From positions 1,426,001-1,490,000 of the forward strand of contig CM120649.1 in assembly GCA_051362555.1 (NCBI GenBank): DNA of 64,000 nt. The letters run 5' to 3'. This DNA comes from Lingula anatina. Its lineage: Eukaryota; Animalia; Brachiopoda. Positions 56,828-61,388 of this stretch are shown here, one piece after another. The translations under genes were made by a program, and so were the position numbers. The notes under the pieces were generated by a model that made no database searches, was not told where the DNA came from, and saw nothing but the letters and a program-made list of their open reading frames with translations. The first letter of the stretch is position 1; each line of letters opens with the position of its first letter.

Positions 56828-59800
56828 TTTCCCCATAGAGAGTCACCGTGGAGGCTCCCCCAGGCCAGGTGATAGGCTATATAAAACAAGCCTGGAGTAT
56901 CTGCAAACCCAAGTTTTACATCCAGAATGAACATGGAGACGACATCCTCAGAATTGACGGCCCCTGCTTTACTTGCAACATCTGTGGAGACGTGCAGTTC
57001 CAGGTAATACATTTAATACGGAGAATTTGGCCCCATTCAGCATAGGGGACTAACTAGTCCAAGGGTCAAATATGGCCGACCCACTTAAATACTTCCCCAT
57101 GGGATATCTATTCAGAGTCTATTAGCCGATAGCGGATTAGATGGCAAGCTTTGTAGTGGGTAATAACAGTGATTGCAGTAAGGGAGAATCTCCCGTAGAT
57201 TTGGATCGATCCAGCTAGTAAGATAGGTTTATCCCTTTGATAGGTGTATCCGTTTAGGTTTATCCCTTTATCCCTTTGCATTTTCTAGGTCCTGTCCAAG
57301 GACGGGAGCGCCCAGGTGGGTCAAATCTCAAAACAGTGGTCAGGGATCGTCAAGGAAATGTTCACGGACGCTGACAACTTTGGCGTGTCTTTCCCCATGG
57401 ATCTGGATGTGAAGATGAAGGCAGTCATGTTGGGAGCCGTTTTCCTAATTGTGAGTATTCTGCTCCATAGGTGGCGCTGTGGTGCATATAATCAGCTTAC
57501 CAGCATAAATGTTTCTGATAAATGAATCCAATGTTTTTGTTATCGAATACGAGAAATTAAAAAAAATATTTTTAAATGAGAGCACTACTTGGTACATAGT
57601 ACATTGCATACATTTGGAAATCATTATAGGAAAGGGTAGTGTCCTCAGTTTGGGGATATTTTTTAGTATGGAAAAAGATTTAATCCTTTATTTTTAGTGA
57701 AAAGAATGTAGAACTAAATGTTGAAAAGGAATTTTTCAAAATGGGAGCTTCAGAAGGGATTTTATATGCATGTCAATTATTTTTTTTACCATCCCTGTTA
57801 GCCTTTGTGAACATGTTCTCACGTGTCAATTAGGGTCATGAATGACATTTTCATTTAAAATTTTTAGTTTTTTTGTTGTTAAAAGTTTATTTGTTACCTA
57901 TTTGAGTTGATTAGAATTTACATTTTGGTTTAGGACTTCATGTTTTTTGAACAATCTGGAGGTGATAAAGAGCAGCAAACTGTAGGAATGCTCTAGTGTC
58001 ACAGGTAAAGGTCAAGGTGAAGGTGAAGGTCAACATTCTCTTCCCATGGATCCTACTTTTAACTGTTAAAATATACTTATGGTTTATTTATTTATATAGC
58101 TATTGTTTGCATGGGGCAATATGGCTTATATGTAATTATTGTTTGTTTTGCAGCACATAGGGGTTTGCATGTTTTTCATTGTTTTATTTTAATGGCCGTT
58201 ATATATTGATTATGTCACAGTGCACAAAAAACTAGCAAAGCTTAATAACCACAACTATTTCTTAGGAACTGGAACTTCTTTGGGTATCTGACTGATGCTT
58301 CCGCTTTTATAGTTTCTAGGAAACATAATAAATGTGGTGGGTTGTTTGTATAATATTCAAAATGTAGCTGCACAGCTCTCTGCTTCCAGATGGTACTGCT
58401 TTAAAAATCTTTTTATCTCTTCTTAAAAAAGAAAGACTTTTCATCTCTCATGCTTCTTTTCAGTGGTCTATAGACTTGCTTTCTTTTGCTTGTACATCAA
58501 CATATTCAACTGATATATGTGCTCAAATGGTATTATAATGTTTGCAGCAGTTATGTCATTATCCTTTTGCAGCACATTTCATACCTTTGGTCATTCTGTA
58601 TTTCACTTTCTCTCAGTATGTTACATCTCCTGTGTATTTTTCTCTCATCTACACTTTTCTTTATCCAGGATATGAAACGGCTAAAAGAGTTGGACACCAT
58701 AATTATCATTTCAGTCTCCTCTCTATTCTCTGTATCATTGCTTCCCTTGGCTGTATATTTCAACTGTTTTCCTCAATTCTAAATCTTCTGTGTTTTTCCT
58801 TTCAACTTTTCTTCTGCTGTATAGGACATGATGTACTTTGAACAGAATACAGATAAGGCCAAAAGAGGGGGACACCATCACCACTAAGCCAAGAAGACAC
58901 TGTCAGGTACCTTCTGGCAAGGAATGCTGCAGCTCTGTTATAACAGCTGTTTCTGAAGCATTCAGCATTGCATGGCACTTTTATATGCATCATGCTCTGG
59001 TGATTCCCCTCCTCCACCCCCCTCCCCCCCTCCACTTCCCTGCCACACACACACACACACATACACACACACACATCTTTCACACTCTTCATTAAATTGG
59101 GTATGGTATAAACTACATGCATATGTCAATAGAGCCTCTCCTCTATTCTAGATCAGAATTGCATATTTATACCCTAGTGTCCAAAAGGGTTTTAAGATTT
59201 CTGAAGCCCTCAGTGGCCCACAGAGGTATTGCAATATTGCCCAAAGTGCACTTTTATAGAAAAGAAACCCCCTTCTTGACAGGAAGAGCTACGGATGAAA
59301 ATTGTCCGTAAGCCTTATTGGAATACTTTGAACCTGCCTGCAGGCAAACTGCTAACACATGTTTAGCAATGGGCACCTTTCATTTCCAACCCCCATTGTG
59401 ACCTACTTATTTGTAGCATGGTTAAAAGGTCAAAGGTGATGACCTATGACCCGACCTGACCTAATTATTGCATCCTTTTTTCCTTTCAGGACTATATGTT
59501 CTTTGAACAGGCAGGGGACAAAAAGCAAGACAGTGTTGGAAATGTTATCTAAATGATTCTACAGAGAGCTTCCACTTGGAACAAAATTAATGCAGGCATG
59601 AATGTTAAAATTGTGCGATTAATGGAAAAGAAAAATATGTCAGAATAGAAATAAAATAAATGATATCTGTGTACATCATTTAACAAATTATTAATGGACT
59701 AGCATTAAATAAATGCAAAGTGATCATTTAGCGCCAGTAATCAAATTTCAAAAAGTCACGAGGAAAATATAATAGTAAGCAGCATGTAAATTTTGTCAGT

Positions 59801-61388
59801 GGGACATTTGTAGAAAGTTAAATGCAAAAGAGGCCAGTTATAATTTTGCTCATTTGTCATTTTTTTAAACAAAGAACAGAATCACATAAGAAATGATGAA
59901 ACTTGCATATTTGGCCAAAAACAGGATTATTAAAAATGATGAATAATTTTATATTGCCTTTTATGTCTATAATGGTTTACTACTGTTACTACTTAGTTTG
60001 TATACTTTTATAACTTCAAAGTTTCTGAAAATGGGCAGGGTTCAACATGCTTGAAATGTTTTAAATATTTAAAATTGAAATAAATAGATAATAACACCAC
60101 ATAGGATTAGTGCAGTGTCTGTTGCTTTGGTCAAGATGTTGATATTACATTGTATGAATGTAAGCCTACAAATCGCAAAATTAAGTTATTTTTCAAAAAA
60201 TAGAAATATTGTTATTAGGTCAATTTAAATAAAACAACTTTTGAACCACCATACACAAGTTATAATTGGAATATATCTGAAAGTATTAAAGTTATTCATT
60301 TGACAATCTTAAGATACAAAGAATGCTTTTGTATTTAAAGAGATTTGTAAACAACTAAGAAAAATATGTTTGAAATTAAAAGAAAATCGAGCCTTGCTAA
60401 AAATGAGGTTAGTATAAAGTGTGCCTTTATTATTAGAGTGAAGCTATTTGAATGTTCTTCACATTCAAATCTCTTGTGTGATCATAAAATGCAGTGTGAG
60501 CTTGTACTAGAGTCTAATTTAGTCAGTCTACCCTTTTCTCTGTTTATTTGATACATTTTAAGCTTCTTATTTCCACTTAACTTCAAAATAACCTCTCACT
60601 GTTTCATTATCATCTTTTCCTTTTTTGTGGTCAAAACACATTTTTGTGTATAATGAAATAAGTCATTTTTGGAATATTTTAAGTTTGTTCCAGTGTTGCA
60701 TTGTGGGTGGGACGGGTTGGTCAAAATGTTCCCATTATAGCCCTCATAAGTTCTGTTCCTACTAACAGTTTTACTTCAGGTTCTTGAATTTTCTCTCTCG
60801 TCTTCTTAAGTTTCACTATTCCAGTTTTGACTTCAGTGTTGGCTTCAGTTTGGCTTCAGTTTTGCACTGAGTAAATCTGAACACTTTTGCAGTTGCCTTT
60901 TATTCAGGGTGTAATTCAGTTTCTTAATGTCTTCTCACTTTTTCAGAATATTAATCAACTGTAGACATAAAATTGTCTGGATATCATTTTGAAAGTTGAT
61001 GTACTTTTATCTCACGTGTAGTAATTCAGATCCAACTTAACTTAATGCCACCTAACAATTTCAGATTCATTAACACTTATTTCAGATTTAACAATATTGA
61101 TACTTTGTGATTTTACAGCTCATTTGATTAAAACTTTTCAGGTGTCATAATTTTATTAAATTTTCTTTAAGTGTACATATAACTTTATTCCTGAAACTGT
61201 TATAAAATTTTTTCAACAATCAGTGTACAGTGATGTTGATTTTGTGCTTTGCATTCATAATATTTTTCATATGATTTTGTTGGAAAAAATGGGCTGATAT
61301 GTTGACATTTTCTGTTTTCTGTTTCTAGGATTACATGTTCTTTGAGAAGTCACAGAATAAAGAAGAGGCTAAAGTTGGAATGGCATAA
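51671..61388 (+). CDS. PLSCR: Phospholipid scramblase (PLSCR family), about 250 aa, with alternative internal and terminal exons
   Basis: Coding exons C1 51671-51701, C2 53894-54007, C3 54611-54688, C4a 55410-55558 or C4b 55897-56036, C5 56839-57003, C6 57289-57450, then one of several last exons. Motifs [35 protein letters not shown]..CWx[12 protein letters not shown] and [34 protein letters not shown] match the PLSCR family. Confidence 0.96.
52630..52789. mobile_element. MITE family C copy, opposite orientation
   Basis: Reverse complement aligns with 17088-17256. Confidence 0.7.
53894..54007 (+). CDS. PLSCR coding exon C2
   Basis: gccag| [38 protein letters not shown] |gtaaga. Confidence 0.95.
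54536..54580. repeat. (TA)n microsatellite just upstream of the PLSCR C3 acceptor
   Basis: Direct reading. Confidence 0.9.
54611..54688 (+). CDS. PLSCR coding exon C3
   Basis: ttgcag| [26 protein letters not shown] |gtgaga. Confidence 0.95.
54652..54960 (+). repeat. Triplicated 112-114-bp unit: 3' half of PLSCR exon C3, its donor and (GA)n
   Basis: agcatgggacagagggtcta.tt.gc.gc.gaag|gtgagat ends at 54688, 54802 and 54914. Confidence 0.92.
55410..55558 (+). CDS. PLSCR alternative exon C4a (duplicate of C4b)
   Basis: tgaaag| [50 protein letters not shown] |gtagtg; open frame with the same phases (1 in, 0 out) as C4b; the AAG acceptor is weak. Confidence 0.8.
55897..56036 (+). CDS. PLSCR alternative exon C4b
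   Basis: ttttag| [47 protein letters not shown] |gtacaa. Confidence 0.95.
56839..57003 (+). CDS. PLSCR coding exon C5
   Basis: ccatag| [19 protein letters not shown]...[15 protein letters not shown] |gtaata. Confidence 0.95.
57289..57450 (+). CDS. PLSCR coding exon C6
   Basis: ttctag| VLSKDG...[44 protein letters not shown] |gtgagt. Confidence 0.96.
57934..57996 (+). CDS. PLSCR alternative last exon C7a
   Basis: gtttag| [26 protein letters not shown] at 58327. Confidence 0.88.
   Translation, partial: DFMFFEQSGGDKEQQTVGML
58669..58782 (+). pseudogene. Frameshifted duplicate of PLSCR last exon C7b (possible fifth terminal exon)
   Basis: atccag|gatatga...gctaaaagagttggacaccat aligns to C7b (gacatga...gccaaaagagggggacaccat) with 22 nt missing; reads [37 protein letters not shown]. 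Confidence 0.5.
58825..58887 (+). CDS. PLSCR alternative last exon C7b
   Basis: Pyrimidine tract plus gtatag| [26 protein letters not shown] at 59091. Confidence 0.75.
   Translation, partial: DMMYFEQNTDKAKRGGHHHH
59490..59552 (+). CDS. PLSCR alternative last exon C7c
   Basis: ctttcag| [26 protein letters not shown] at 59650. Confidence 0.88.
   Translation, partial: DYMFFEQAGDKKQDSVGNVI
61329..61388 (+). CDS. PLSCR alternative last exon C7d
   Basis: tttctag| [25 protein letters not shown] at 61518 and 61563. Confidence 0.88.
   Translation, partial: DYMFFEKSQNKEEAKVGMA

Follow-up and report, generated by a model that had tools for sequence, protein, structure and literature searches.

The last coding exon of a Lingula anatina phospholipid scramblase gene is present in four tandem homologous copies

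A gene of the Scramblase family in the brachiopod Lingula anatina carries its last coding exon in four tandem homologous copies, E1 to E4, and the first copy included in a transcript sets the C-terminal tail of the protein. E1 is an internal exon spliced to E4, E4 is also joined directly to the common upstream exon 6, and E2 and E3 are predicted to supply rarer tails. We give this reading a probability of about 80%. The gene lies on a stretch of 64,000 nucleotides (nt) (the window; contig CM120649.1, positions 1,426,001 to 1,490,000 of the forward strand, assembly GCA_051362555.1), and all positions below count from its first letter. The array had been noticed in a reading of the letters made without database searches (the sequence-only reading), which took the copies for four alternative last exons. 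E1 and E2, however, are cassettes that carry a stop codon and are spliced onward, and are not last exons.

Results

Four homologous reading frames of 19 to 20 codons start at 57934, 58825, 59490 and 61329 on the forward strand, each in phase 0, directly behind an AG acceptor and ended by a stop codon. They follow exon 6 (57289-57450, forward strand; named C6 in the sequence-only reading), which encodes VLSKDGSAQ..., ends in ...GAVFLI in phase 0 and has its GT donor at 57451. The coordinates that the sequence-only reading gave for the four acceptors behind exon 6 are exact. E1, an internal cassette of 71 nt (57934-58004), has a coding sequence at 57934-57996 for 20 residues that ends in TAG, and the donor CACAG/GTAAAG follows after 8 nt. 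E2 is a cassette of 82 nt (58825-58906) and likewise encodes 20 residues (coding sequence 58825-58887, stop TAA); here the donor GTCAG/GTACCT follows after 19 nt. E3 (59490 to about 60121; coding sequence 59490-59552, stop TAA, 20 residues) is a probable alternative terminal exon. E4 (61329-61700; coding sequence 61329-61388, stop TAA, 19 residues) is the main terminal exon, with poly(A) signals at 61518, 61563 and 61650. The four are adjacent homologous exons of equal phase with a common upstream exon, which is the arrangement of a tandem-duplicated exon substitution.

All four copies begin with D-x-M-[FY]-F-E. A six-frame scan of the whole 64 kb with the pattern [DE][FYMLIV][MLIV][FY]F[EDQ] returned exactly the E1-E4 sites and no others. 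The same pattern occurred on average 0.285 times in 200 block shuffles (maximum 3), and a chance occurrence of the four motifs was rejected because none of the 200 shuffles reached the four observed. The first 18 nt are identical at 12 to 15 positions between copies, and the remainder of the exon is far more diverged; pairwise, 5 to 12 of 20 to 22 aligned residues of the tails are identical. Between E3 and E4 the first six codons show three synonymous changes and no replacement, and the codon differences quoted in the sequence-only reading for these conserved residues are correct. The flanks do not align, as had also been claimed, and the likeness is restricted to the exons. The sole multi-copy repeat family in 57289-61800 (family D1) consists of 23 nt at the starts of E1-E3. 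Together, this fits old duplicates under coding constraint, in a small sample of about 60 nt per copy. The tails of E1, E2, E3 and E4 vary at the second position (F, M, Y and Y, respectively), at the fourth (F, Y, F and F), in charge and in their end motif. Among 116 distinct tails of fetched scramblases, those of E1, E3 and E4 resemble 54 that end in G-[MVFN]-x(1-2).

Two further features were noted within the array. A stretch of 27 nt at 58674-58700 (forward strand), 178 nt 5' of the middle part of E2, is 81% identical to the ..AAAAGAG..GGACACCAT.. region (family D3); it may be the relic of a decayed fifth copy or a chance match. The donor-like site GATG/GTGAAG at 61400-61409 (forward strand) stands 15 nt past the E4 stop, about the distance of the real E1 and E2 donors. 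No junction from this site is among those reported in the RNA runs described below, and the site may hint at the origin of the cassette donors. A repeat search for competing RNA structures (docking and selector pairs) turned up nothing persuasive, the inverted pairs in it being short, AT-rich and 72-93% complementary.

Usage of the copies was followed in four poly(A) or oligo-dT RNA-seq runs carrying the same species label (X1, X4, X7 and X8), aligned to 53500-62500; a junction was reported only with at least 3 reads in a run. Runs X1 and X4 are strand-specific and agree with RNA from the forward strand. Exon 6 is joined to E1 (57450>57934) by 26, 21, 39 and 20 reads in X1, X4, X7 and X8, respectively (106 in total), and to E4 (57450>61329) by 4, 46, 1 and 4 reads (55 in total). 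More than one copy thus enters mature transcripts directly behind exon 6, and the homologous duplicates of the tail-coding exon are in use as the sequence-only reading had proposed. That reading had named the observation of one junction only as its refutation; with two exon 6 junctions seen in the four runs, the refutation fails. E1 is in turn spliced to E4 (58004>61329; 20, 27, 40 and 40 reads, 127 in total) and to E3 (58004>59490; 2, 0, 2 and 3 reads, 7 in total), and E2 is spliced to E4 (58906>61329) by 3 reads, all in X4. The share of E1 among exon 6 junctions is 87% in X1, 31% in X4, 97% in X7 and 83% in X8 (Fisher p=5e-7 for X4 against X1). Since the E1:E4 ratio differs so strongly between runs, the choice of copy depends on the sample.

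The junctions determine how the array is read. One mRNA may hold E1 and E4, E1 and E3, or E2 and E4, so that the copies are not strictly mutually exclusive in splicing; they are exclusive in translation only, because the first copy carries a stop. Copies that follow it in the mRNA are 3' untranslated region (UTR), and the E4 frame is untranslated whenever E1 or E2 precedes it. The sequence-only reading had expected isoforms that differ in their 3' UTRs, which does not hold for the two well-supported ones: the E1-form and the E4-form mRNAs have the 3' UTR of E4 in common. Its term of alternative last exons suits E3 and E4 and fails for E1 and E2, whose donors lie 8 and 19 nt past the stop. E3 is probably a true terminal exon. 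Inspection of the sequence found no donor-like site behind it, AATAAA/ATTAAA signals stand at 59650-59713 (100-160 nt past its stop), and coverage extends for about 300-600 nt.

Several results weigh against four productive tails. Neither 57450>58825 (exon 6 to E2) nor 57450>59490 (exon 6 to E3), the other two junctions that the sequence-only reading had proposed to count, was reported at the threshold of at least 3 reads in any of the four runs, and tails 2 and 3 are therefore without direct RNA support here. E3 was seen only as UTR behind the E1 stop (its 7 reads), and for E2, whose onward junction comes from X4 alone, the preceding exon was not seen in transcripts. The four runs were read in part (X1 and X4 each to about 6%, X7 and X8 to about 25-26%). 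A real, though less probable, alternative is accordingly that E1 and E4 alone give protein, and that E2 and E3 are old duplicates now serving as occasional untranslated exons or splicing noise, their frames being leftovers. Depth is in keeping with this view: 0.41-1.47 in the E2 bin (58617-58917) in all four runs, 1.56 (X1) and 2.06 (X4) over the E3 bin (59520-59820) with 0.82 and 0.2 in the next, that is about 1-2 over E2 and E3 against 26.7-55.3 over the E4 bin (61326-61626). The E2 tail is also absent from all 227 fetched proteins. Yet E2 and E3 lie within introns that are otherwise without similarity, and each still has an intact acceptor, opens with D-x-M-[FY]-F-E and runs for exactly 20 codons to a stop. 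RefSeq also models an isoform joining exon 6 to E3 (isoform X2, P0122). The E2 tail, with Tyr at position 4 and an HHHH end, matches features of mollusc scramblase tails. Among the 116 distinct tails, Tyr at position 4 occurs in 25 and an HHH end in 3, all of them from oysters, which suggests that the E2 tail has not decayed. The small part of each run that was read also speaks for keeping E2 and E3 as predicted tails of the array.

Less weight falls on the two remaining explanations. The stop in each copy, AATAAA behind E1 (58327) and E3 (59650-59713) and the low read-through behind E1 in X4 (depth 2.48 and 1.55 in the bins of 58015-58616) could be taken as signs of four alternative last exons that act independently, every one of them ending a transcript with a 3' UTR of its own. 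For E1 this is contradicted by the 127 reads to E4 and 7 to E3, set against 106 reads entering E1, and by the depth, which is about 7 over E1 and no more than 2.5 directly past its donor; E2 is spliced onward, too. We regard this explanation as improbable. It seems hardly credible that the additional copies are dead paralogues, left behind when whole genes were duplicated, and not exons of this gene. Lingula does have scramblase paralogues elsewhere with a tail like that of E4 (the cluster of P0006, P0123 and P0124), but apart from the tail copies tblastn of P0004 and P0006 found no scramblase exon 3' of exon 6, for which reason this reading was rejected. The four copies moreover share strand and phase and stand behind acceptors, and at least three of them are spliced into transcripts of this gene. 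The preferred reading remains the array in which the first included copy sets the tail.

Reads of X7 and X8 are 95-99% like the window over 53500-62500 and carry many fixed differences, which points to a diverged population or to a sibling species or close relative. They show the E1 and the E1>E4 junctions as X1 and X4 do. Among the differences listed, E1 has a synonymous one only (57963, GGT>GGA) and E4 only a change of stop from TAA to TAG (61388); judged from these, both frames are conserved, and a further 90 differences exist beyond them. Same-strand coverage runs past E4 to at least 62500. It dips at 61627-61927 and then stands at a depth of 35-50 (X1 and X4) on the gene strand in 61928-62500; this signal comes either from a separate transcript further downstream or from a long 3' UTR in which the dip marks a polymorphic, AT-rich stretch.

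The translation of exon 6 is identical (100%) to P0004, annotated as phospholipid scramblase 1 isoform X1 of Lingula anatina, and tblastn of P0004 matches the exon at 98-100% identity. The Pfam profile PF03803 (Scramblase) gives 312.2 bits for P0004, 310.7 for P0121 and 310.9 for P0122, above the curated cut-off of 25.4, and spans residues 30-248 of P0004 at profile positions 4-221 of 221. On sequence grounds the host gene is thus a member of the Pfam Scramblase family and the same gene as the PLSCR1 models of Lingula anatina. In RefSeq, isoform X1 (P0004) has the E1 tail, and the 90% cluster of P0004 also holds isoform X2 (P0122, E3 tail) and isoform X3 (P0121, E4 tail). Three of the four tails are hence already in the automated annotation, and the E2 tail is the one unannotated item.

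Upstream coding exons were located with tblastn of P0004 at about 51638-51700, 53893-54007, 54611-54688, 55897-56036 and 56839-57003, all on the forward strand. The junctions 54007>54611, 54688>55897 and 57003>57289 were found in the RNA runs, and loose read ends at 53892 and 56036 agree with the neighbouring exons. A second intact copy of the Cys-rich exon 55897-56036, here called exon 3a, lies at 55410-55558 (forward strand) with AG before it and a GT donor after it. It measures 149 nt against 140 nt and leaves the reading frame unchanged. None of the four runs covers it (depth 0), and the junction 54688>55897 bypasses it. It may be a silent duplicate, or it may serve elsewhere as a mutually exclusive exon. 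A tandem repeat of 114 nt at 54652-54921 (forward strand; 2.4 copies, 92% matches) covers the last part of exon 3, the GT donor behind it and the first part of the intron. The splice donor of exon 3 is thereby present in three copies, of which the reads use the first only. In the intron 5' of exon 6, the segment 57030-57165 shows joints of opposite strands, many loose ends and depth in both orientations, which points to a mobile element with inverted repeats, other copies of which are expressed elsewhere.

Discussion

In the array as proposed, inclusion of E1 or E2 behind exon 6 would place a stop codon 8 or 19 nt before the last junction. Such transcripts would be spared junction-dependent mRNA decay if the 50-55-nt rule, which is established in mammals, also holds in brachiopods. 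Transcripts that include E3 would end at its own poly(A) signals.

As to the protein, the scramblase family is characterised by Ca2+-dependent lipid scrambling and by a Tubby-like fold, a beta-barrel with a hydrophobic helix at the C-terminus. The AlphaFold model of P0004 (alignment of 63 sequences) has a mean predicted local distance difference test (pLDDT) score of 83.5, with twelve strands, a helix at residues 228-246 and a pLDDT below 50 at residues 254-261. The best fold matches in the PDB are weak (TULP1, Tubby and At5g01750, the last as 1zxu with probability 1.00 and TMt 0.59), with E values of 0.012-0.019 and none reaching 0.001. Given the helix and the low-scoring end in the model, the alternative exon would supply the last five residues of the helix, Glu247 and a disordered tail of 13-14 residues. 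For human PLSCR1 (hPLSCR1), the available portion of PMC8202325 describes a C-terminal helix that serves membrane insertion and metal coordination, and implicates Asp301, Phe302 and Glu306 in activity and in contacts with cholesterol. Between the Lingula isoforms, the differences would lie in the terminal turn of the hydrophobic C-terminal helix and in the charge and end motif of the tail. Our best guess is that such differences would tune how the protein is inserted or embedded in the membrane, its contacts with lipids or its binding of partners.

A bolder proposal, which we hold to be doubtful, extends this to a regulated system. The array would work by the rule that the first included copy wins, with stops at most 20 nt from the donor as a safeguard against decay. 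A tissue switch would choose among four helix ends and tails, including the Gly-Met-ended and the His-ended styles, both ancient, which in other animals belong to separate genes, and would thereby retarget or retune a single scramblase core.

The array supplies four natural variants of the end of the PLSCR C-terminal helix and its short tail on an otherwise identical protein. The role of this segment is still debated, and tails that proved to differ in activity, localisation or contacts with lipids would be ready-made probes of it. The gene is also a clear example of how duplicated cassette exons that carry a stop give alternative C-termini without alternative polyadenylation, cases that enter automated annotation solely in the form of protein isoforms. 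In other respects the gene shows an ordinary tandem exon duplication that is largely in RefSeq already. The useful corrections concern two of the copies, which are cassettes carrying a stop, and the major isoforms, which have one UTR in common.

Comparison with known systems

The RefSeq isoforms X1, X2 and X3, which have the E1, E3 and E4 tails, belong to this same gene (100% identity). None of them has the E2 tail, and the internal position of E1 ahead of the UTR of E4 is not visible from protein records. Among the papers listed in literature searches, judged from titles and the beginnings of abstracts, none concerns PLSCR genes with homologous tails as alternatives, and a literature search for scramblase with Lingula returned no paper. 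The paper on Drosophila scramb1 deals with N-terminal isoforms only. Relative to human PLSCR1, as far as described in the available portion of PMC8202325, the Lingula exons begin at the residue matching Asp301, cover Phe302 and Glu306 (the D, F and E of DFMFFE) and then add a short tail. The vertebrate homologue P0002 ends in FLI-DFMFFE followed by 13 residues. The exon boundary before the tail may be widely shared among scramblases. This is suggested by 22 of the 227 fetched proteins, which continue as FL[IV]-V-[SR]..., as expected from read-through of an intron starting with GT at the same position.

Isoform pairs that differ in the tail alone occur in 2 of 20 other scramblase clusters examined, so that the theme of alternative tails recurs and is not general. 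These are isoforms X1 and X2 of Tubulanus polymorphus (P0157 and P0015; 3 differences) and isoform X2 of Schistocerca gregaria (P0020) against P0128 (5 differences), where we infer the S. gregaria record within P0128 from neighbouring accession numbers. Each pair shows two tails, compared with four in Lingula, and is known from protein records.

Parallels exist in other gene families. In the available portion of PMC9741552, 77 of 236 human events of tandem-duplicated exon substitution are C-terminal swaps, which often concern single transmembrane helices and disordered tails, and three homologous 3' exons are described in TPM1, Drosophila Tm1 and C. elegans lev-11. PLSCR does not occur in its main text. 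As in these three genes, tandem 3' coding exons that are homologous to one another confine the difference between the Lingula proteins to a homologous stretch at the C-terminus, and like the C-terminal swaps the Lingula exons fall on a helix and a disordered tail. Unlike TPM1, Tm1 and lev-11, the Lingula gene has four copies, two of which are stop-carrying internal cassettes spliced to a shared terminal exon. Drosophila pip, in the available portion of PMC9013439, has clusters of tandemly duplicated terminal exons described as mutually exclusive. It shares with the Lingula gene an array of several homologous 3' exons and their alternative choice, whereas E1 and E2 of Lingula are not terminal and are not accompanied by a convincing competing RNA structure. 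Tandem-duplicated substitution of the C-terminal exon is a known kind of arrangement, and the PLSCR array of Lingula is a further case of it.

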